Origin: Raja brachyura
Taxonomy: Eukaryota
Length of the DNA: 64,000 bases
Reading direction: 5' to 3'
Assembly: GCA_963514005.1 (NCBI GenBank)
Contig: OY740813.1
Location: 8,370,001-8,434,000 of the forward strand
The notes beneath the pieces were generated by a model. That model ran no database searches and was not told the DNA's origin. It saw nothing but the letters and a program-made list of their open reading frames with translations. Positions 3,795 through 39,017 of this stretch are shown here, piece after piece; within the stretch, counting starts at the first letter, position 1; each line of letters opens with the position of its first letter. The translations under genes were made by a program, and so were the position numbers.

Positions 3795-4617
3795 CCAAGT
3801 TACAAGGTTAATTCCCGGGATGGCGGGACTGTCATATGCTGAGAGAATGGAGCAGCTGGGCTTGTACACTCTGGAGTTTAGAAGGATGAGAGGGAATCTC
3901 ATTTAAACATATAAGATTGTTAAGGGCTTAGAAACATAGAAAAATAGGTGCAGGAGTAGGCCATTCGGCCCTTCGAGCCTGCACCGCCATTCAATGTGAT
4001 CATGGCTGATCATCCAACTCAGTATCCCGTACCTGCCTTCTCTCCATACCCCCTGATTCCTTTAGCCACAAGTGCCACATCTAACGCCCTCTTAAATATA
4101 GCCAATGAACTGGCCTCAACTACCTTCTGTGGCAGAGAATTCCAGAGACTCACCACTCTCTGTGTAAAGAATGTTTTCCTCATCTCGGTCCTAAAGGAAT
4201 TCCCCCTTATCCTTAGACTGTGACCCCCTGTTCTGGACTCCCCCAACATCGGGAACAATGTTTGGACATGTTTGGCTTGGACATGCTAGAGGCAGGAAAC
4301 ATGTTCCTGATGTTGGGGGAGTCCAGAACCAGGGCCCATAGTTTAAGAATAAGGAGTAAGCCATTTAGAACGGAGGCGAGGAAACACTTTTTCTCACAGA
4401 GAGTGGTGAGTCTGTGGAATTCTCTACCTCAGAGGGCGGTGGAGGCTGGTTCTATGGATACTTTCAAGAGAGAGCTAGATAGGGCTCTTAAAAATAGCGG
4501 AGTCAGGGGATATGGGGAGAAGGCAGGAACGGGGAACTGATTGGGGATGATCAGCCGTGATCAGGTTGAATGGCGGTGCTGGCTCAAAGGGCCGAATGGC
4601 CTACTCCTGCACCTATT
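3795..4617 (+). mobile_element. CR1 LINE 3' fragment interrupted by an antisense CR1 at 3930-4260
   Basis: LIPGMAGL...YKIVKG sequence breaks at 3930 and resumes ggcttggacatgctagaggcagg near 4274. Confidence 0.85.
3930..4260 (-). mobile_element. Nested CR1 LINE 3' end
   Basis: Minus strand FPMLGESRTGGHSLRIRG...FFTQRVVSLWNSLPQ plus CR1 tail. Confidence 0.88.
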
Positions 4618-4989
4618 AATGTTTTATTATTAATAATGTTTAGTGTTTTCTGAGTCATTCGTAACTGTCATATTGTTAGTTGTGGGCGGAGCACGCAGGC
4701 AAATTCCTTGTATGTGAATATTTGGCCAATAAACTTACTTACTAACTACTTCTGCACCTATTGTCCATTGTCTATTGTCCATTGACATGACATTTATGAC
4801 TTCGTGCTTCACTTCGGCTAATTCCGTCACGGAAACGCCGAAGTCTTCGAGCGCCGACTTTGCTTAAAAATATGGTGCCCTCATAATTTGACGATCTTGT
4901 ACCAAACACTCGTGTAAATAGTTTGCAGAGAAAACAAAAAAAAAACAAATACCTTTTCTGGAAAGATCTTTCCCTTCGTTTGGGAATGG

Positions 4990-5135
4990 TGGGTGGGGGG
5001 GGGGGGGTGATGACGCCACGACGCCGGGCGTGCGCAACGTCACGACGTACCCGACGACGGGCGACCCGCGACGTAAACCCGGCGCGTGACGTCACGATGT
5101 ACACGTCGCCGCTTGGCGAGTGAAGATGGCGCCGG
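4990..5135 (+). promoter_or_regulatory. CpG-island promoter of SEC16A with CRE/ACGT-core cluster and YY1-like motif
   Basis: Very CpG-dense segment. Perfect CRE palindrome CGTGACGTCACG at 5085-5096, TGACGCCACG at 5011-5020, ACGTCAC at 5037-5043, AAGATGGCG at 5123-5131. Followed by a splice donor at 5200. Confidence 0.75.
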
Positions 5136-5199
5136 TTGTCCGCTCGGTCGGCTCAGTAACGGCGCGGAGCGGAGCCGCTCGATCCCAGGGCTGGACCAG
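5100..5199 (+). other. SEC16A: Probable first (5' UTR) exon of SEC16A; start approximate
   Basis: GC-rich segment ending in CAG|GTGAGG (5199/5200). A matching acceptor ctctctcccccacAG ends at 18422, 78 nt upstream of the ATG. Confidence 0.65.
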
Positions 5200-5593
5200 G
5201 TGAGGACGCGCCCCTCCTGTATCGGTGTGTCTAAGGGCGAGCGCAGGAGGCGGCGGTCAGACTGATGACATCTCGATTGAGGTGGTGGGAGGCTGCCATG
5301 TGTAGGCCCGGTGGGGAGGGTGGAAGCCGGGGGTTCGGCGGCCAACATCGAAGGGATTTACAGGAGTCGCTGTCTCAAAAAGGAAGGCAGCCAGCATCAT
5401 CAGAGACCCACACCACCCACCCTGACCATACACTCATTTCACCATTGCCATCGGGAAGAAGGTACAGGAGCCCGCAAACTGCTACGTCCGGGTTCAGGAA
5501 CAGCTTCTTCCCCACAGCCATCAGGCTCCAACGACCTCCAAATAAGCTCATAAATACATACACTTGCTGGCATTGGTTTTGTCATTTTGCAGT

Positions 5594-6020
5594 NNNNNNN
5601 NNNNNNNNNNNNNNNNNNNNNNNNNNNNNNNNNNNNNNNNNNNNNNNNNNNNNNNNNNNNNNNNNNNNNNNNNNNNNNNNNNNNNNNNNNNNNNNNNNNN
5701 NNNNNNNNNNNNNNNNNNNNNNNNNNNNNNNNNNNNNNNNNNNNNNNNNNNNNNNNNNNNNNNNNNNNNNNNNNNNNNNNNNNNNNNNNNNNNNNNNNNN
5801 NNNNNNNNNNNNNNNNNNNNNNNNNNNNNNNNNNNNNNNNNNNNNNNNNNNNNNNNNNNNNNNNNNNNNNNNNNNNNNNNNNNNNNNNNNNNNNNNNNNN
5901 NNNNNNNNNNNNNNNNNNNNNNNNNNNNNNNNNNNNNNNNNNNNNNNNNNNNNNNNNNNNNNNNNNNNNNNNNNNNNNNNNNNNNNNNNNNNNNNNNNNN
6001 NNNNNNNNNNNNNNNNNNNN
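5594..6020. other. Assembly gap (427 N)
   Basis: Run of N. Confidence 1.
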
Positions 6021-6565
6021 TATGTGTGCGCATATATATATGTGCGCATATATATATGTGTGCGCATATATATATGTGTGCGCATATATATATGGGTGCG
6101 CATATATATATGGGTGCGCATATATATATGGGTGCGCATATATATATGGGTGCGCATATATATACGTGGGTGCGCATATATATACGTGGGTGCGCATATA
6201 TATACGTGGGTGCGCATATATATACGTGGGTGCGCATATATATACGTGGGTGCGCATATATATACGTGGGTGCGCATATATATACGTGGGTGCGCATATA
6301 TATACGCGTGGGTGCGCATATATATACGCGTGTGTGCGCATATATATACGCGTGTGTGCGCATATATATACGCGTGTGTGCGCATATATACACGCGTGTG
6401 TGCGCATATATACGCGTGTGTGCGCATATATACGCGTGTGCGTATATATACGCGTGTGTGCGTATATATGCGTGTAATGTGTGTGCGTATATATGCGTGT
6501 AATGTGTGTGCATATATATGCGTGTAATGTGTGTGCATGTGTGTGTATATGTGTGTGAGTGTATG
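6021..6565. repeat. Alternating purine-pyrimidine minisatellite (18-25 bp units around tgcgcatatata)
   Basis: Tandem units such as tatacgtgggtgcgcatata. Confidence 0.97.
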
Positions 6566-9500
6566 TCCACAACTTTTTCTTGTTTATACTGTTTACAGTG
6601 TACCATGTTTACATATTCTGTTGTGCTGCTGCAAGTAAGAATTTCATTATTCTATCTGGAACATATGGCAATAAAACACTCTTAACTCTTGACAGTGACC
6701 CAGGTCCCTCACTCATTCTCTCCCTGTGGGGATGACTGCCTGGTTTGTTGGAGGCGGTTGAAGGAGGTGGCCAACAGGGCAAAGGCTGATGTTAAAGGGC
6801 AAGGTCTGAACTAAATTAAGATTGGAAGTTGCAAAGCTTTAGGTGTTTTTGCAGGGGAGGGATGGTAGTTGGCCGTGAGTTACGTAGGTCTGACTGGGGA
6901 GTAAACAGAAAATGTTGAAAACATTCAACAAGTCGGCCAAGGGGAATAGTCTTCGACCTGAACGTTAACTGTTTCTCCTTCCACAGATGCAGCCTGACCT
7001 GCTGACTCTTTCGAGCATTTTCTGTTTTTATTTGAGATTTTCAGATTTTTACTTACTGTAATGGGGTGGAGATTTGGAAATTGGGGCTCAGATTGGTAGC
7101 TGCAGCCTCGGAAAATACTTGTTATCCTTTCATTTTATTTCACCTATTTTTCTCCCTACTGTCAGTCACTTTCTGCCACTGACCTGTTTTATGGGCTGTA
7201 TTAAAACTGTCTGCACACAGTTCAAACCTTTGAACATCGCACATTCTCTTGATCATGCATGCAGAGGCTATTTGATTCTCAACTGCAGCACAGTGAGTAG
7301 CATGTGAAGGGATTGCGAGTTTAAACGCAACTTTACAGATTTCTCATAATTCAAGATGATCTGCACTGCAGTGTTCAGGAAGCAGTGCACAATTGGGGCT
7401 AATATTTTTTGAAAAAAATTAAACCGAAGCCTGGATTGCACTCAGAGCAATGTAAAATATTTTATGATACCATTTGAAGGACTAGGAAGTTATCTTTGTC
7501 CTTGTGAATATTTATTCATCACACAACATCCTTTATTATTTATTAATTTTTATGATTCAGTGCCACGTAATTTTTTTTTTCTCCCAGCTGACTATTCATT
7601 GCTCATTGCGTTTCTTACAGATGAAAGGCATTTTTAACGTGTTATTGTGAGTTGTCAGTCTTTAACTGGCATTGATAGATGTTTAATTGTGACGTGGAAC
7701 TTTGGAAAAGTGAAAAGAGTTAATATATAATTAACTTTGACATTTCAATGGGCTTAAAACGCTGGCCAACGATTGTTTCTGATGCAGGAACAAACGTGTA
7801 CTTGAAGCAGGGGAAAGGGATGATCTTTAAGGTGAAATTTCGATCAGTCAGATGGAATCAGAGGAGTACAATGTTTTTATGTTTCTGTGATTATTAGTAT
7901 ATTTTACAGAATGCTGTGACTTGTAGTGGATTGAAATTGGTACTAGCAGCCCAGTTGTTGTGAACTGGGAGTGGGTTTCAGCTGGAGCAGGATATAAGAA
8001 TACAAACAAAAGCAGGAGAGAGCCATTAGACCCTTTAATCCCGTGTTGCTGTTGATTACCAATCTGCCCCATGTGCATATCTTATTCTAGCAGCATATGT
8101 TGAGAGCAGCAAAATTGTCTCTCTTTTTTCATTAATATATTTTTCACACTGATGTCACCTGTAACACCCTTAAATTGAGAGCTGCCAGCTCAGCACTGAC
8201 TGGATCGTCCTTGCCTGACTGGCTCAGTATTGCACAAGGCAGTGCACGCATCTCATTTTAAAAACATTTGTTTGGTATTAAAAACATGTTTGTCCATTTG
8301 TCAATTTCTAATTAATCTCTTTTAATCTGGGACTTTGGTTTAATATATTCTTGGGATATATGCATTGCTGGTAAAACCAGTTGTTTATTATCCATCCTGT
8401 AGTTGATCTGAAAAGGTGATAGTGATAGCCTTTTGAGGTGTGCTTGTATCACAATCTGCTAAACCATCCCCAAATCACCCAAGACCAAGCTGGATGTGCC
8501 CTGGTGTCATTTTATCACTTCACTTCAGTCTTGCAATTTTTAGTACTCTGACCACCAAGGTGACTGTTCTTTTGACTGCTCAGTTTGCAACAGGAGTAAA
8601 TTAATGCAAGGGAAGGAAATGTGTATTCATACAGATTTTTAATAACTTATGGGATTTGCAAGGGTGTTTTAGATATGAAGTACTTTTTCACTTTTTGAAG
8701 TGTCACTAATATTGTGGATAGCAAATCATTTCACTTAAAGTAAACTAAATTTCAGTCATACAGCATAGCAAAAGGCCACTTGGGCCACCATGTCTGTGCT
8801 GATCATCAATTACTGATCTATGCTAATCTCATTTGCCAGCACTTGGTCCATGGGCCTTTGATGCCTTTGCAATTCGTGCTCATCTATATACCATTTAAAT
8901 ACAAAGTATGTAATGAGGCATATACAATTAGGAGAGACATAAAATTCACACAGATACCCTCATTGCAAACCTATATCTAAGTGTTTTTAACACCTTTGCT
9001 ATGAGGAAAAGTTTCTTATTAACTCCCTTGTCTATGCCACACATCATTTTATATATCTCAATCCAGTCCCTCCTCATCCTCACCTGCTCCATGGAAAACA
9101 CAGCAGCCTGTCCAATGTCTCATTATGCAACACTCCATCACAGGTAGCATCTTGATGAATCTTCTCTGCAGTCACATCCTTTCTTTGTGCAGTAACCAGA
9201 ACTGCTCGGAGTATTCCAGTCATGGTCTAATCAATGTTTTATCAACTTGTACTATAACGTTGTATTCTGTGCCCTAGCTAATGGAGATCAGTATTATGTA
9301 CACTACCTTCATTACCGTGAGGATATTTGGACTCCTCAATGCTTTTTAGAACTACACTATTCATTATGTAAATGCAAGCACAGAAGGATACCATAAGCCA
9401 GTTTTGTCCTTTATTTCCTTTGTCTACCTTCTTGCATTCTCTTGCCTTTGGGATCATCTTCCAATATTGTCAAAGACTACTTCTGCACAGGCGTTTCTTC

Positions 9501-10020: not shown

Positions 10021-10929
10021 GGATCTAATTAGAAAGATCTAATTCTGGTTCCTTTGGGAAGTACATCAAGGCCTACTTGCGTTGCAAAGGAGATTTATTG
10101 GAATGGCTCCATAGTAAGTGATTTTAGATACCTGGTAAGATAGAAGAGTTGTGTGTTTTCCTTAAAGTATAGAATGTTCCCTGGCATTTTGATAGTGAAT
10201 AAGGAGAAATAGTTGCTGTCAGCAGGAGATTTTGGATAAGTTGCAAAAGGATTAGAGGGTAGATGGTATTTTCATTGTGTTGTCATCTTTGGCTCACTGT
10301 ATGAAATGATGGGAGCATATTAAAATTAACGTGCTGAAGGGAATTTTGTATAAATACTTGCAAAGATTGGGAGTAGGAGCAACTGAATATTTCCAGGAAA
10401 ACTGCTGGAATCATGTGAGGCTAAATGGTCTCCCGTGCGGAATGATTATGCTGTCAAATGAAGAGAAAGCTATGATTCTACAAATAGCTCACCAAGGGAA
10501 TGTTTGTTTGTGGATTCAGCAAAGGCTTAAATGAAATCAAATTGGGAATTGACTATCTGATCCAAATGTATCTTTCCTAAAATCTAAATCTAAATATACC
10601 ACCAAGAGGAAATTTGTACTAAATTTCCAATTTAGTGTTTTGCATTCACTTGAATCCAAATGGGAAATGCCTTTTAGTTTTAAATGCATCTTGCTTTTTG
10701 TTTCTGCACAGGATAGGCAGGATTTGACAAGAGGCTGTAACGAGTTTTCTATAAAGCCAAAATATTGCACAGCTTTGAAAATGTTCTGGTTTTAAGCTGC
10801 TATGTTGGTAAATGTGCTCCCGAGAGGAGTTTTGTACTGAAGATGACAGTGGGTAAGCTTGCATTTCCAATTTAGTGTTTTGCACTCACTGCTGAGGATG
10901 TGGTTGCCTCTATATTCAAGAAATAAAAT

Positions 10930-11660
10930 GCTGGCTGGGTGATTGCTTTGCAGAACACCTTTGTTTGGTCCACTGTTGTAACCCTCTGCTTTTAGTTGGC
11001 TGTCATTTTAATTCTCTATCCTGCTCCTACTTTGACCTATCAGTCTTTCGATTCCTGCACTGTTCCAATGAAAGGTTGAGGATCAGCACCTCTTCTTCTG
11101 CGTGGACATGTTGCAGTCTTTAAGACTTAATATTGAATTTAACAATTTAATGTACCTCGCATTCCTTGTTCATATTAGGACCACCAGTTATGTAAAGGCT
11201 ATCCATTTATGTTATGAACTCAATTTCTCTCTGCACTGATACTGACACGGACAAGTAATAAAATCAAAATAAATTAAAAAAAATCAAATACTTTCTGATC
11301 TGGGCATTTTCCATAACTTTGACTTGCCATTAGTGTGTTTATTTTATCTAACCCTTTATTAATCTGTTAACCACATGTTATCTGCATCATAATGCCTCAC
11401 TAATACTACCCCCACCCTATCATAATGCCTCACCAATCCTACCCCCACCCTTTCAAAGATTAATGGGGCCAAGAGAACGTCCTCTTTGCTTCCCCTCCCC
11501 CCCCCCCCCCCATTAAAAACAAGTTATCAGCTTTTTGCTTTTCCCCCAGTTCTGTGGAGGAGTCATCAACCAGCAATGTTATCTCTAGTTCTCTGTCTAT
11601 GGGTGCTGAGTGCCATTTGTTTTTTTCTCAGCTTCCGAATTTTTAATTTGTATTTCAGCA
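10930..11660 (+). mobile_element. Decayed Penelope-like element 3' end (GIY-YIG endonuclease plus degenerate hammerhead-bearing terminal repeat)
   Basis: LGDCFAEHL...VGCHFNS...DLSVFRFLHCSNE, frameshift, then EDQHLFF..MLQSLRLNIEFNN (10935-11150); degenerate terminal motif near 11550-11640. Confidence 0.75.
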
Positions 11661-12164: not shown

Positions 12165-12343
12165 GAACACAAAGTGCTGGAGTAACTCTGTGGGTCAGGC
12201 AGCATCTGGATTGATAACTTTTCAGATCAAGACCCCTCTTCAAACTGATAAGCCTGAAGAAGCATCTCAACCTGAAGCGTACTCTATCCATGTCCTCCAG
12301 AGATGCAGCCTGACCTGCTGAATTGCTCCAGCAATTGGTGTCC
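12165..12343. mobile_element. Fold-back Penelope-derived element (degenerate hammerhead)
   Basis: Arm caaagtgctggagtaactc...ggcagcatctgga and its reverse complement flank cctgaagaagcatctcaacctgaag. Confidence 0.7.
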
Positions 12344-12373
12344 TATTGTGTATTAACAGTTTAGTTTATTATT

Positions 12374-12660
12374 GGGCGGCACAGTAGCATAGTGGCAGAG
12401 TTGCTGCCTTACAGCGCCAGAGACCCGGGTTCGATCCTGACTACGGGTGCTGTTTGTACCGAGTTTGTACACTCCCCCTGTGACCATTTGGGTTTTCTCC
12501 AGGTGCTCCAGTTTCCTCCAACATTCCAAAGACGTATAGGATTGTATGTTAATTGGCCTCTGTAAATTCTAAATTTACACCCTAGTGTTTAGGTTAATGC
12601 TATTGTACTGGGTGATCGTTGGTCGGTGTGGACACGGTGGGCTGAAGGGCCTGGTATCTC
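12374..12660 (+). mobile_element. HE1-type tRNA-derived V-SINE
   Basis: tRNA-like head with B box GGTTCGATCC (12428-12437), V-domain ggttttctcc...ttcctccaacattccaaagac, CR1-like tail gggctgaagggcctg. Confidence 0.85.
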
Positions 12661-12740
12661 CGAAGTATTGCCACGTGTATTGATATACAGTGGAAAGCGT
12701 TTTTGGTGCATGCTATCCAATCAGCGAAAAGCCAATCGAG

Positions 12741-12976
12741 CTGTGTAGGAAAGAACTGCAGATGCTGGTTTAAAACGAAGATAGACACAAAATGCTAGGG
12801 TACCTCAGCGGGAAAGGCAGCATCTCGAGAGAGAGAAGGAATGGGTAACGTTTCGTTTCGAGACCCTTCAGATATGAAATCGGTCTGAAGAAGGGTATCG
12901 ACCTGAAACGTCACCCATTCCTTCTCTCCAGAGATGCTGCCTGCCCCGCTGAGTTACTCCAGCATTTTGTGTCTAT
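12741..12976. mobile_element. Fold-back Penelope-derived element with near-intact minimal hammerhead
   Basis: About 95-bp inverted arms (12781-12873 and 12884-12976). Confidence 0.8.
12882..12915 (+). ncRNA. Minimal type-I hammerhead ribozyme motif
   Basis: GGT-CTGAAGA-A-GGGT(ATCG)ACCT-GAAA-C-GTC-ACC: both core boxes, stem II, GUC triplet, and stem I GGU/ACC. Confidence 0.65.
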
Positions 12977-13599
12977 TACAATTGAGCTGTACAGATACGG
13001 GATAAAGTTGGGACAATGTCTGTCTTCTAACATATAAACTAGGAATTAGATGAATATAGATATTTGACTTTTGTTGAAATCCAGTGCAAAAACCAGAGTT
13101 TTGAGCTAACCAGAACAATTATTGTAAGATACAACATATGTAGACTTAGTGAGAAAGATGTACCGATGAAGAATTTTGGCGCCTACGGGAGCACAGTTGC
13201 GTCTGTTGTGTAAATGACATGTGTCACATCAAGCCTTAAAATTCTTAAATTATTCATGGATGGTAAAATAATTTTTAACCCAGTGACTTGCTTTATTTAA
13301 TGGGAAGTACCTGGTTGCATACAGTGTAATCTGATTCGTCATAATGGTGCTACATATCAACCTGGATTGTATCATCTTAGTTTGTTTTCTTTTCACACAC
13401 TCTATCTATGCTGGGCTGAAACCCTGGCTGTGTTTACAATGCAGGATATCCGGGCAAGCCAGCAGTATGTAATAAATCGGTCAGGATGGGTGCAGCTCAG
13501 TGACGGCGTTTGATTATTTGAACAGTTGGCAGATTGTTTCTGCACTGGTAGATGCTTTGTTTTAGTTGTTGGACCTGTGTGAGAGCCAGGCTAGCGCAT

Positions 13600-16410: not shown

Positions 16411-17377
16411 TTCACCAGGGGCGCTGCACCCTGAACCCTATTATGATGAGATCGATTGTAAAATGCATTTTCCATTCCACCCCTGAGGTTTCAAAGAACA
16501 ATTGGGCTGTGTTGTTCCACTAGTGAGATCGCAGTACTGTGCTGTATTGCTTTGTTCTGAAATACACATTAACTGATGGAACTTATTTGGTGTATTTCAG
16601 TTTTGTAAAAAATTAATTCCATGGATGCTTTGAACAGTTGATTGATGTAAGAATGAGTCACTGGTTTCGATGGGTAAGCTGGCAGATTTTCATTGGTACA
16701 AAGTTGTATCCCTCTGCAGAGAGCAGAATGTAGTGGGCACTACACAACCCTGTAAGTTGTCTGTGCTGAAAATGTTTCTGATTCTGCAGTCCCAGATTCA
16801 TTTTGATCCTGTGGACTTATGGTAGTTTGGATTAATTTCTACACCATCATATTTGTGGCATCTTTAGTACTCGTAGCCGATAATGTTGAGTATACTCTTG
16901 GCAGCCAGTGTGATAAAAGTGGTTATTATTTTTTATTCACGTTCCAATTTAAACTTCTTGATTAGTGCAGGTTACGGGGAGATGGAAGGCGAATGAGGTT
17001 AAGAGGGAGAGATAGATCAGCCATGATTGAATGGAATAGTCGACTTGATGGGCCGAATGGTCTAATTCGGCTCCTATCACTTATGACTTTAAACGGGTAT
17101 TGTGTCTATCTTCAATTGATTGTCAATTGAATACTGGAGTAACTGCGGTTAGGCTGTATCTCGGGAGAAAATGGATCGGTGACGTGTGGGTCAGTGCCTG
17201 AGCCGCTGAATTATTCCAGCGTTTGTGTCTATCTTTAATATAAACCAGCATCTGCAGCTCCTTGTTATTACATTGTATATTGGAGTTGGTTGAAGGATGA
17301 ATATCAGATTCTGCAAAGGTTGATGGTATTGTGTGTGGTTTGAATGGAAGCATCAATTTAGAAAGACATCTTAAATA

Positions 17378-18500: not shown

Positions 18501-21500
18501 ATGCAGCCACCACCCTCGAGATTATCGCCAGGAGTCGCCAATGCTGCAGGAGCCCCACCAAGCGGGGGCGCCCCCAATGTCTTCCGCCGCAACGCCCCTT
18601 TCAGACGGCCCAACACGCCGCTCTCCGGAGCCCCGCTACCACCGGTCACCGATCCTTTTGGACTGAGTCGGCCCAATCAACCCGGTGACTTGGCAGCGCC
18701 GCACGGCGCCAACAGCGGGGGCCCGCTGCTCCCCCCACCTTTGTCGAGTCAGCAAGATGGGAGCCCCGCTCCACCTCGGTGGCCCGCAGACACTGTGCAC
18801 AACCCACAAGGGTCATTTCCCGGGCCGTCCACCGCCCCGGGCGAGCGGTCAGAACCATGTGGTGCACCGGCGCCTCTTGCCCCGATGTCACGCTTTGGCG
18901 ATGGCCAGTTCTTCCCCGCGTCCCCTCCTGACGCCGGGCAGGGCCTACCCCCCGAGCCCTCGTACTTCCACACGGGGCTAGGGCCAGATGGCGGCGAGTT
19001 TGGGCCACGTCACGGCGCGACCCCTTCCCAAGCAAGGAACTCCCACGGGCAAGAACCACTTCCTTTCCCTCCCGGCGCGCCGGCATTCTCACCTCAGCTC
19101 CAGCCAAGCACTTCCTCCCAGTGGGTGGCGAGTCATGGCAGTCGGCCTCCCTCCGTCCAAAACTACTTTCAACCCAGTGACCCCCAGACGCAGGGCTTCG
19201 GCAGTTACTACTCTCCAGTCCAGCTGCCACCTTTTCCAGCTCACCAAAACCAGGCTCCTGGCAGCTTTTGCCAGCAGCAGCATCCACCGCCAGAGTCTTT
19301 TGCCCAGTTCGCTGGAGGAGAGCGCAAGGACAGTAGTCGGCCACCTCCCTTCCACCACCCGGCCCAGCACCAACAAAACTCAGGCGCTGGCTTGGCCCAC
19401 CCAGAGGACTGGGCACACAGTTTCCCACGAGAACCATGCCCTCAGCAATCTCCCAGACCCGACAGTCTCCCCCCACAATCAGGCCACCCCCCAGACTCTG
19501 ACCCAACTACTGTTTCTATGTTTTTCAAAGGGGGCGAGGTAGAGAATAAAGAAACCCTGGCAAGCAACTTTCAGCGTGGAGCTGATGTTGCGACTGGAGA
19601 TGCCTTTCAGCCAAGTCAAGGGCTGTTCTTCAGTGGATTGCCCCCTCCAGAGTCGGGGCAGCAGGCAGTGGGTCGGGCATCTGGAGTTGAAGCCCATGGC
19701 TTCCTTCCCCCACCACCTGCCCCGTACGGTGTTTACAGCCAGGGTTCTGGAGGCCCTGCTGAGATCAAGGATCCCACTATGCCTCAGCGTGGCGGGGATG
19801 GGCTGACACTGGAAAATGACGAGAATGCTGAATTTGCACCGAACCAAGAAGTGTTGCCCAGTGAACCTGAAAGGATCTCTGTGGGATTCCAGCCCATGCC
19901 TGGCTTGGCAAACCAGGGACAGCATGTCACCAAAAATATTGCAGCAGCAGGCGGACCACCTGTGAATCAGGAGACCCCGGACGTGACACCTCACCCTCTG
20001 CGATCGGACAGCATCTCCTCGAACCACAGCAGCACCAGTCACAGCAGCGGCTCAAGTCTGCGGCGCTCCCAACTTCCGCCAAACACTTTCATCCAGCAGG
20101 AGATCGGGAAGCCACCGACCGATGCTGCCTCCTGCTTCTTTGAGCAGATAGACACTTCTCCGCTCTGTCAGGACCCCTCCTATCCGGGCAGGGAGGCGGC
20201 GAGCGCTGGGCGGACTATGTATTACAGCCAGTTGCCGCATCCCACCAATCCCACATCTCCAAAGCCGACGGCCACCTTCCAAGCCAGCGCCAACAGCTCG
20301 TTTGAGCCCGTGAGGTCACACGGACAGTTCGCAGTCAAGGGTGCGGAAGTGGATCAAGCAAACATCGTGATGGAGCTCGGCCAGGCTGCAGCCAGCACTG
20401 CGGGGCAGCAGCAAACTGCGTCAGATATCTCCCCAGGCAACCTAGAACAACCACCCGACAACTTGGAAAACATCACAGTCCCGCACACTCGCTCAAACCT
20501 CTATGCAGGCCCAGGGGCCCCTGAAAATATGTTGCCACCCATGCCAGAGATGTCAGAGAAGAGAACACCTTTGAGAATGCATGGCGCCCGTGCAAAAGCA
20601 GAGAGCCCAGCTGCCACCCTGTGGGCACAGAACGAGCTGCCGAACTTCACTGCTGGGATTGTGCTGGCGCTGGCTGCTCCAGCTGTGCCCACGGCAGTCA
20701 AGGAGCCCAGTGCTGAGGTTGGCCAACCTCCTCAAGATGGCAGCAAGGAGGCGAGCTACCCAGTGCTCGTGGGCAACATGGAGAATCCTCCCCAGGCACC
20801 TGAAGGTGTAGCCCCCAAAGGCCAGGCAAGTTCCAGCTACGCCACGCTGCTGATGCCATCTCTGGCTGCGCCAAACCCACCTGTGCTACTCGCTCGGCCT
20901 CTGCAGACCAGTTCCTCTGCTCCAAAGTCCAGCCCCGACCAGCCTCTGCGGGATCGGGGCGACGGCCAAAGCGTTTCCTTTACGAGCCCTGCACCGCCAG
21001 CTGCTGGCCTTGCCACTGCGCTCGGATCACCACCTGCCCAGGCACCACTCAATCTGGCTGCAGACGGTCACCTCGACCCAAGGTTTGCAGGTGGAGGACC
21101 ACCAACAAGGGACATGAGCACCCCTGCCAGCCCCCCCTCTAACCGAGTACCTGGCGCAACCATAATTGCCCCGACCTCCGCTCTTCAGCCACGCAGTGAC
21201 ATCAGTAAAGACGATGTAAGAAATCCAGGTTTTCATCCGCCTGAGTCATCTGCCAACTGTGAGCTGCTTGATTTCACGTTGCGTCGCTCTCCACCGAATC
21301 AGTCCATCGCCAATGCTAATCAACCTGCGTCCCTGCCACTTAATAATACCACACAGCACCTTCCTCCTTGCCAGACCTACGTGGCAGGGCTCGGCATTAA
21401 TGACAAACCAGGTTTCTATCTGCAGGTCACCAAAGATGTCCAACAGCAGCAACAGCCGATGGCCACAATGACGGGGCAACAGGCAGTCCCCCCGCCCCTC

Positions 21501-33041: not shown

Positions 33042-33248
33042 CAATGTTTAAGAAGGAACTGCAGATGCTGGAAAATCGAAGGTAGACAAAAATGCTGGAT
33101 GAACTCGGCGGGTGAGGCAGCATCAGTGGAGCGAAGGAAATGGGCAAAGATTTGGGCCGAAAGAAAGGTTTTGGCTCAAAACGTTGCCTATTTCCTTCGC
33201 TCCATAGATGCTGCCTCACCCGCTGAGTTTCTCCAGCACTTTTGTCTG
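33042..33248. mobile_element. Fold-back Penelope-derived element
   Basis: tgtttaagaaggaactgcagatgctgg head; inverted arms around aagaaaggttttggctcaaaacgtt. Confidence 0.78.
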
Positions 33249-33399
33249 GCTTTATGTTGATTTGCCTCCACTTTTACACAATCCACGTCTCAAGGTTGCC
33301 TCTATTTTGTTGTACTCCTAAACTCCCTGCACTGCTCCTGATTGATTGCTGTGCTGAGTGATCTTTAAAGGTTGAAGGTTCAATCTGATTTTGTTTCAG

Positions 33400-33538: not shown

Positions 33539-34181
33539 GTGAGTTTCTGCATTTTATGAATTTTCCGGAATTGAAGCTACGTAATCTCACTTGCATTGGT
33601 TGCTTTATGCTTGATAAATGATTGCTTGGTTTGCATTTTAAGCCTCCACTGTGATGTGATCCTCTTAACTGGGTAGGACTAAGATTTCATTTCTTTCTGT
33701 GCATGCACCGATAATATACAAGGGATGGCAGTGGTATGCATAGACTGTACAACAATAGATGAGGATGAAATGTTTCCTGGTAATTCTCACATCCATCTGC
33801 AGAAATTAACAGATGTACTTCGAGACTTCCTAGTGTGGCAGATTAATATTTATGCCATAGCCAACATCTCTGAAACATTATTTTATCCAATAATTAATAC
33901 AGTGCATGAAATCTCGTGTGTGCAGGATTCTATGTACTGCATTAATTTGTTTGTAAATTGCCAATAGGGATGTTCTGAGTTTGGGAACATTTTTGATTGC
34001 TAAGTGTACATTTTATTTCCATTTCCCTCTTACTTCTAGGGAGTTGATGATATTGAATGCCCACTGGCTGCAGTTCCATAACCATTGAGTACCACAAAGA
34101 TCAAAGCTTAAAACAAGTTTTCTGTTTGCATTTGTTGGGATTGTAAATGAAAGTGTTTCTTGGCATCATTGTGCATTGCAG

Positions 34182-34421
34182 ACAGTGATTGGTACAGACA
34201 TTGCTGAGCTCCTGCTGCGGGAACACCGATCCGTCTGGCTTCCTGGCAAATCTCCAAATGAAGCCAATCTGATTGACTTCAACAACGACTTGGTTCCGCG
34301 CGCAGAGGATGAGTCCTGTGCCTCTCTCCTTACTGACAGCTTCCTTGACAACATTGTGACAGAGTGTACCAGCAAGGACACCGAGCGTTTCCGGGAATTG
34401 CTGCTCTTTGGCCGCAAGAAG
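34182..34421 (+). CDS. SEC16A: SEC16A coding exon 10
   Basis: ttgcAG; TVIGTDIAELLLREHRSVWLPGKSPNEANLIDF...TERFRELLLFGRKK; AAG|GTAAAT; 240 nt. Confidence 0.96.
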
Positions 34422-34560
34422 GTAAATTTCCAAATCAGATCTTCAAATCTCCTTGATGGGCTGCCACTGGTTCCAATGGGAATGTTGGAGGGGGGGGGGG
34501 GGGGGGGGAGAGGTTGGGAAATGTGGCATATATTCCTTGTTGACCGAGATGTGTTTGCAG

Positions 34561-37150: not shown

Positions 37151-37512
37151 TTGTCTTGTATCCAAATGTTTTCCTTCTTTTGATCCTTTAGTCATTTTGT
37201 TGTGTGGTCCTCCTTGATTTGATGCCCGTCTCATCCTTTAATCACTTTAGAATCAGACAATTTGATGTGGGGTTGAATTCTGATTACATGCTTGGACTAA
37301 GCAGTTTTGTGTTTTAAAAATGTAGACATTTAGGACATGACCTTTCCTTTAAGCAATTTAGTAATTATTTTTCTGGAAGAAAATTCTATTTTGTTTTCAA
37401 TTAATTCAATTTGGGTGCATTAGGATTTTCAAACAATCTAAATGCTCTAAGGTCCCTTCTTGTGCTAGTTTACCTCTGGGATTTATTTTTGAGTATCGTG
37501 GCATCTTAAATG

Positions 37513-37752
37513 TTTAAGAAGGAACTGCAGATGCTGGAAAATCAAAGGTAGACAATGCTGGAGAAACTCAGCAGGTGAGGCAGCATCTTTGGAGCGAAGG
37601 AAATAGGCGACGTTTCGGGTCGAGTCTGAAGAAGGGTCTCAACCCGAAACATGGCCCATTTCCTTCGCTCCATAGTTGCTGCCTCACTCGCTGAGTTTCT
37701 CCAGCATTTTTGTCTACCTTCGATTTTCCCGCATCTGCAGTTCCATCTTAAA
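37513..37752. mobile_element. Complete fold-back Penelope-derived element with hammerhead core and long TSD
   Basis: End-to-end inverted arms; CTGAAGA-A-GGGTCTCAACCC-GAAAC at 37626-37650; CGTGGCATCTTAAATG duplicated at 37497-37512 and 37753-37768. Confidence 0.85.
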
Positions 37753-38697: not shown

Positions 38698-38905
38698 ACA
38701 AAGAACCGCAGATGCTGTAAACTTGAGCAAAACACAAAGTACTGGAGGAAGTTGACGGGTCAGTCAGCATTTGTTGAAGGAACAGATAAATGATGTTTTG
38801 CGTCGAGAGTCTTCGGACTCTGAAGAAGGGTTCATGTACAAAACATCGCCTATCCGTTCGCTCCACAGATGTTGTCTGACTCGCTGAGTTCCTCCAGCAC
38901 TTTAT
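38698..38905. mobile_element. Fold-back Penelope-derived element (diverged)
   Basis: Inverted arms around ctgaagaagggttcatgtacaaaacatc. Confidence 0.7.
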
Positions 38906-39017
38906 ATTGTGGCGAAATGTAGATTGAGTGTATTCTCATGAAATGGCAAAGTAGGTTTCAGGGGCTGAATGAAGGTATGAAGACAATGTTAACAGCTGTG
39001 ATCCTCTTTCCTTGTAG

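Follow-up and report, generated by a model that had tools for sequence, protein, structure and literature searches.

A head-to-head Penelope-like element insertion in Raja brachyura SEC16A carries a minimal hammerhead motif that is probably inert and predicted to be locked in a hairpin

Minimal hammerhead ribozymes (min-HHRs) were found in the pLTRs of metazoan Penelope-like elements (PLEs) with a relaxed RNAmotif search pattern (Cervera and De la Pena 2014, PMC4209133). According to that account, single motifs showed no cleavage and dimers low cleavage, and an extra nucleotide between A9 and G10.1 is one of the published features of the class. In EN+ PLEs, insertions follow a pattern of adjacent, inverted, 5'-truncated pLTRs with a tail of 30-40 bp on one side only (Craig 2021, bioRxiv 2021.04.23.441226; Arkhipova 2013, PMC3846280); the term 'tail' is defined in Craig 2021 and in Frangieh 2024 (PMC11167929). 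The latter reports that in the anole Poseidon element PAc the tail lies between two internal sites at which the RT starts, and that extension occurs on both strands of the target in vitro. The anole hammerhead cut only with its protein and was dispensable for insertion, and RNA-seq gave no reads with an end at the cut site (Frangieh 2024, PMC11167929). Non-LTR retrozymes are described as pLTR-derived, non-coding units with a type I hammerhead, arranged in head-to-tail tandems that allow cleavage as dimers (bioRxiv 10.64898/2026.07.22.740005).

We analysed a 64,000-nt stretch of the Raja brachyura genome (contig OY740813.1, positions 8,370,001 to 8,434,000; the window). At 12882-12915 its + strand reads GGT CTGAAGA A GGGT ATCG ACCT GAAAC GTC ACC, letter for letter as given in an earlier description of the locus (the original prediction). 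This minimal type I hammerhead motif comprises the CUGANGA box (12885-91), GAAAC (12905-09) and the GUC triplet (12910-12), so that C17 is 12912 and the putative cut falls after 12912. Stem I has 3 bp (12882-84/12913-15) and stem II (12893-96/12901-04) is closed by a G-U pair; this pair (G12893-T12904) and the extra A after A9 (12892) had both been foreseen and are both present. A search pattern that requires both boxes, 4 bp in stem II and 3 bp in stem I finds a single match in the window and none in any of 300 mononucleotide shuffles. As in the min-HHRs of metazoan PLE pLTRs (PMC4209133), the motif is of type I, has no real helix III, and combines CUGANGA, GAAA, a UH triplet and helix II with a palindromic 15.2-16.2 (ACGU) and the extra base between A9 and G10.1. 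Two min-HHR features are missing, namely the length of helix I, which is 3 bp here and 2 bp in the parent elements described below against the typical 4-5 bp (2 bp in D. virilis), and the conserved G10.1-C11.1 pair, which is replaced by G-U; the 4-bp helix II is listed as a further difference (PMC4209133). A scan of the locus against Rfam gave nine matches at E<=10, none of them to a hammerhead family, and the miRNA matches among them lie far below their gathering scores and reflect the hairpin. The same scan of one parent copy gave no hammerhead match.

The motif is embedded in an element that we regard, with high though not complete confidence, as one insertion at 12742-12976 made of two head-to-head ends of a Neptune-type PLE, likely through priming on two strands, and the motif in it is likely inert and predicted to be held in a hairpin. 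The element is flanked by a 12-bp target-site duplication (TSD; + strand), whose left copy (12733-12744) is identical at 11 of 12 positions to the right copy (12979-12990); the sole mismatch is a C/T difference at a CpG, and the last 3 nt of the left copy overlap the end of the tail. The 39-nt PLE tail (12742-12780, - strand) is found on the left arm only. It is followed by the left, inverted pLTR arm (12781-12870, - strand), which is a second, broken copy of the hammerhead motif, in which box 1 has lost 3 nt and stem II carries substitutions; tail counted, this side carries 11 substitutions in 127 aligned columns. An insertion-specific filler of 11 nt (12871-12881) separates it from the tail-less right arm (12883-12976, + strand), which has 3 substitutions in 92 columns and whose first 34 nt are the motif. 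The third stem I pair of this copy we assign to the junction-adjacent G at 12882, and its G-U pair to CpG decay. Inverted arms of about 95 bp had been described and are recovered as two paired segments, 12781-12834/12923-12976 (54 nt, 87%) and 12831-12869/12890-12928 (39 nt, 87%), but the motif does not sit in a central loop as its placement at the centre of the element had implied; as the start of the right arm it lies within the long hairpin stem. The whole element folds at -139.1 kcal/mol (z -15.3). No ADAR-type A>G scar was found in either arm of this copy.

By the features tested, the copy is a truncated, inverted EN+ PLE insertion with a min-HHR-type motif. It shares with the EN+ PLE units of Craig 2021 and Arkhipova 2013 the head-to-head arrangement, the tail at one end, the TSD, a tail that leads into the ORF start and, in its parents, the CX2-5CxxC linker. 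It differs from them in consisting only of two stumps of 95-135 nt without an ORF, and most stumps of the family stop within a few bases of the hammerhead C3, unlike the published units.

The host gene is identified by a + strand exon at 34134-34424 that matches Sec16A proteins (the best named hits, 91% and 88%, are from two sharks), so the motif lies on the SEC16A sense strand, as had been proposed. The segment 5200-18422 (+ strand) is likely the first intron of SEC16A, as suggested by sequence features: there is a CpG island (4751-5250), a donor-like site falls at 5199/5200, and an acceptor-like site (18422/18423) precedes the first ATG at 18501. Pfam searches with five ORFs of the window matched zero families, and a Sec16 family search across the genome gave zero matches. 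In DNA contigs from four runs, repeats predominate (about 300,000 repeat contigs per run); two contigs span the right junction of the insertion with an arm-side overlap of only 24 nt, below the threshold of 31.

The origin of the arms was traced through their parents. A GIY-YIG search of the genome returned two families, and in the second of these the arm lies behind the endonuclease C-terminus. A protein search then located 30 parent loci, 29 of which carry a same-strand arm about 90-410 nt behind the ORF match. In 27 of the 30, the core pattern stands behind the RT+GIY-YIG ORF, and this direct adjacency bears out the link to Penelope-like minimal hammerheads made in the original prediction. 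One member of the parent family matches RVT_1 at E 1e-4 (below the curated cut-off) and GIY-YIG at E 2.6e-6. An apparently intact ORF of 1203 aa (L237:2353-5961) contains DKG, CX4CxxC and YIGET and starts in the tail region; in intact parents the 39-nt tail extends towards the ORF start. We also observed a tandem array with a period of 3965 bp (L238:2249-9948) and direct partial tandems of the arm family (L105, L108 and L238). The arm is identified as the pLTR of a Neptune-type EN+ PLE, where 'Neptune-type' refers to linker and motifs (DKG, CX2-5CxxC and cysteines inside GIY-YIG) rather than to a tree, and the linker is common to Nematis. Craig 2021 (bioRxiv 2021.04.23.441226) assigns the CX2-5CxxC linker to Neptune and Nematis. 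The closest ORF-linked arms, with 86/92 matches to the right arm, lie 106-113 nt behind a decayed GIY-YIG C-terminus (L178 and L048). The young intact parents, with ORFs of about 1200 aa, belong to a sister subfamily (78/92 matches to the SEC16A copy), and no intact ORF was found for the exact subfamily of this copy. The parents have CAGT upstream of the core and GCCT or ACCY downstream, and their stem I is only 2 bp.

The other family from the GIY-YIG search, with an ORF of 760 aa, was rejected as the parent since the arm is absent from all 30 of its loci. It is a very young PLE with identical RT+GIY-YIG ORFs in tandem arrays, many of them near contig ends (L095, L096 and L097, also L065-L094). 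One of its loci (L095) has an unusual two-ORF layout, in which a 602-aa upstream ORF overlaps the 760-aa ORF, and 5 of its 30 loci contain a different CUGAUGA...GAAAC motif. Separately, L112:2242-4706 contains long ORFs that, judged by eye, resemble an RT/RNase H and tyrosine-recombinase (DIRS-type) retroelement.

The arm family is abundant. The window contains 21 arm matches; its + strand has 8 arms. We further sampled 132 ten-kb stretches (1.32 Mb) at round coordinates of the larger contigs, which is not a formal random draw, and detected 533 arms covering 3.8% of bases, against 0 in a shuffled control. Extrapolated from this sample, the genome would hold 1.09 +/- 0.15 million arms; distant subfamilies are under-counted in this figure, as the arm profile was built from 24 loci picked for their likeness to the SEC16A copy. 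Neighbouring arms form 108 head-to-head pairs (about 220,000 when extrapolated genome-wide), 18 tail-to-tail pairs and 37 direct pairs. Like min-HHRs, whose copies are mostly dispersed and truncated with pairs on opposite strands (PMC4209133), most arms are solo, and 216 of the 533 sit in head-to-head pairs. The copy numbers far exceed the 4,000-9,000 given for coelacanth and Xenopus (PMC4209133), with the caveat that the counting methods differ. We found no description of this PLE family in the literature on cartilaginous fish, although Repbase or Dfam may hold it, and the main text of a shark-and-ray genome preprint does not mention Penelope.

Tails and duplications were compared across copies. 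Per head-to-head pair (n=108), one tail was found in 65, none in 41 and two in only 2, where 11.0 were expected (P 8e-4); the tail-less calls depend on the chosen cut-off, and the 41 pairs without a tail, like the lack of a clear TSD in most pairs, partly reflect decay. By eye, the 24 best-matching loci have one tail in 23 cases and none in 1, and the tail may be on either side. Of 42 strong fold-backs, 14 have TSDs with 10 or more matches, compared with 0.5% of mismatched flanks (a 43rd fold-back lay at the edge of its locus and was left out). The 3-nt loss from the box 1 GAAGAA recurs: it is present in one arm each of 5 of the 24 top fold-backs (L001, L004, L010, L012 and L021) and may be due to slippage or to a broken source copy.

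About 220,000 pairs of similar size could be taken to mean that the fold-back is copied whole, as a non-autonomous mobile element in its own right, akin to MITEs or retrozymes. A minimal junction geometry is indeed common to 4 of 43 strong fold-backs, and retrozymes are reported to derive from pLTRs (bioRxiv 10.64898/2026.07.22.740005). A unit copied whole is nonetheless quite improbable: the junction geometry is different in 39 of the 43, the tail changes sides from one pair to another, and the majority of arms stand outside head-to-head pairs. The retrozyme layout, head-to-tail with a hammerhead in each unit (bioRxiv 10.64898/2026.07.22.740005), is also not what is seen at SEC16A, where the pair is inverted, the left core is broken and the inversion masks the motif.

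The reading as a single insertion with priming on two strands is more specific about how the pair arose. The PLE protein would nick both target strands, and one cDNA would be primed at the end of the tail and another about 35 nt further in, corresponding to the two internal start sites reported for the anole element (Frangieh 2024). Both cDNAs would extend for 100-135 nt until they reach the 5' end of an uncut RNA, which probably lies at the initiator-like TCAGT just before the core; microhomology or filler would then join them. The family here and PAc (PMC11167929) share a hammerhead close to the pLTR/ORF junction, a tail delimited by two 3' end points and an apparently uncut RNA template, but PAc belongs to the Poseidon clade and is described by in vitro data, whereas the family here has a Neptune-type linker and is known from sequence alone.

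A different source for the second arm would be snap-back self-priming of a single cDNA, or an antisense template. Self-priming has been proposed for head-to-head junctions (Arkhipova 2013, PMC3846280), and some junctions here are short palindromes. A further point in favour is that both arms belong to the same subfamily in 19 of the 25 classifiable pairs (of 53), against 36% expected, with an arm identity of 0.85 within elements versus 0.77 between them. On the other hand, solo arms end both at the tail and at the tail-less site (59 of 178 have the tail), so that the tail-less end looks like a priming site of its own. Many junctions hold 5-79 nt of filler or parent UTR, and the anole protein extends both strands in vitro (Frangieh 2024, PMC11167929). 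We therefore give snap-back or an antisense template an appreciable but clearly minor chance, and retain two-strand priming as the likely route.

The starts of the copies bear on the state of the template. Of the 533 arms, 285 score well; 187 of these reach the 5' edge of the core, while 3 start within 2 nt of the cut site, no more commonly than in the downstream background. The core start is intact in 185 arms: 40 of them extend into the parent UTR, 78 are solo and flanked by unique sequence, 62 belong to fold-backs and 5 abut other arm sequence. In the solo flanks (n=78), likeness to the parental TCAGT fades over positions -1 to -6. Arm starts pile up immediately 5' of C3 rather than at the cut site, which suggests that the templates were mostly uncut RNA that came to an end, or was given up, there. 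TCAGT, which directly precedes the core, is a sequence that we take to resemble a polymerase II initiator, and it also resembles a splice acceptor. An Inr-like TCACT is known in a rotifer pLTR (Arkhipova 2013, PMC3846280), and the Penelope element of D. virilis has an internal promoter and a 5' intron. In a check for a cap-derived G after AGT, position -4 is G in 6 of 13 non-C solo arms and in 9 of 11 fold-back arms, the latter being confounded by the opposite arm. A search for intron-less (spliced) copies gave 3 of 140 with weak ORF-end-like upstream sequence, none convincing. Four parent loci (L100, L105, L116 and L202) have a donor-like CAG/GTAG at the ORF stop, a pyrimidine tract of about 100 nt and an acceptor-like CAG/T just before C3. 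This suggests that, in one parent subfamily, the pLTR may contain an intron whose end lies at stem I, in line with the published case of D. virilis.

Whether the SEC16A motif could cleave was approached by folding. The original prediction of a self-cleaving intronic RNA in real competition with the hairpin is not supported: the hammerhead fold, when imposed, carries a penalty of 25.8 kcal/mol within the element and of 24.1 kcal/mol in nascent RNA, and its modelled share amounts to about 1e-17 at the point where the cut site has just emerged and to 7e-19 in the complete element. Nor is an intact same-strand partner found within the window, where the other 7 + strand arms have broken cores. In SEC16A pre-mRNA, the left, antisense arm would be transcribed first and would pair with the motif as it emerges; on this proposal, the intron would be spliced out uncut. 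Folding cannot prove the motif inert, since Mg2+, tertiary contacts and proteins have no place in the energy model, and since the parent's own motif also folds poorly in it (stem II share about 0.01).

The motif might still act as a conditional ribozyme, cutting SEC16A pre-mRNA once the hairpin opens or with help from a second copy or the PLE protein, and thereby tuning splicing or transcript level. For such activity speak the full set of invariant core bases, the palindromic ACGU, the 3-bp stem I, a hammerhead share of about 2% in the ensemble of the 43-nt core alone, and the protein-assisted hammerhead of the anole PLE (Frangieh 2024, PMC11167929). However, the share falls to 1.5e-7 in the construct 12860-12960 and to the values above in context, and a dimeric hammerhead structure reaches -8.3 kcal/mol versus -23.9 kcal/mol for the best cofold. 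Further points against it are the broken cores of the other + strand arms, the change of G10.1-C11.1 to G-U and the ordinariness of the core. Although every invariant base is kept, as in only 85 of the 533 arms (those with both boxes), 58 of these also keep stem II and 35 also the palindromic CG, which extrapolates (from 35/533) to roughly 70,000 equally complete cores genome-wide. Conditional cleavage is thus highly improbable, and we favour the hairpin-locked, inert motif. In the 35 complete cores, stem I is 2 bp in 27 and at least 3 bp in 2, and the closing pair is G-C in 34; among the 329 aligned arms it is G-C in 207. Its 3-bp stem I and G-U closing pair set the SEC16A copy apart. As a regulator of SEC16A, the element very probably does not matter. 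Were its motif to cut, intronic copies in the hundreds of thousands would be candidate switches, but this is not where the evidence points.

Conservation of the catalytic boxes above the level of the arms gave a mixed to negative picture. A13, A14, A15.1 and U16.1 are slightly better kept, a point against an inert motif: they are changed in 64/1290 cases (5.0%) against 450/6103 (7.4%) for comparable A/T columns of the arm (Fisher p 0.002), and 4.0% against 6.4% in a closer subset (p 0.011). G12 and box 1 are not: G12 is mutated in 102 of 322 arms, above other CpG guanines (24%), and box 1 mismatches (12.6%) are close to those at the free N7 (14.0%), with truncation inflating both values. A compensatory check of helix II found 4-5 A-T swaps per pair among 329 arms, near the level of independent mutation. 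The better-kept A13, A14, A15.1 and U16.1 would fit selection on source elements, with context effects as an alternative.

A broader interpretation is offered tentatively, and we rate it as possible rather than probable. The approximately one million stumps, about 4% of the genome, may be a fossil record of germ-line Penelope copying in a vertebrate, in which priming on both target strands by one dimer of the enzyme, at two fixed internal sites, would be followed by copying of uncut RNA out to its start 1-6 nt before C3 and by joining of the cDNAs. The hammerhead of this lineage might then be kept as a protein-binding or promoter element and not as a ribozyme, and some 220,000 by-product hairpins would load introns with dsRNA. 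Under this interpretation, stem I could not exceed 2-3 bp, because the RNA would begin so close to C3. The regularity of the copy ends offers a modest clue to the PLE mechanism. With young intact parents and very many regular-ended insertions, the family is test material on the formation of inverted PLE copies and on the role of the hammerhead.

The SEC16A span contains other traces of such elements. A decayed fragment of a PLE endonuclease domain lies in the same intron (window 10866-11143; 51-54% identity, E 2e-14). Five older head-to-head insertions of the same PLE family were observed at 12167-12358, 17130-17267, 33046-33259, 37512-37752 and 38703-38907, all five without an intact + strand core. 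Just upstream of the element, at about 12373-12660 of the window, is a high-copy repeat with very high depth in the DNA contigs, which we take to resemble a tRNA-derived SINE of sharks and rays.
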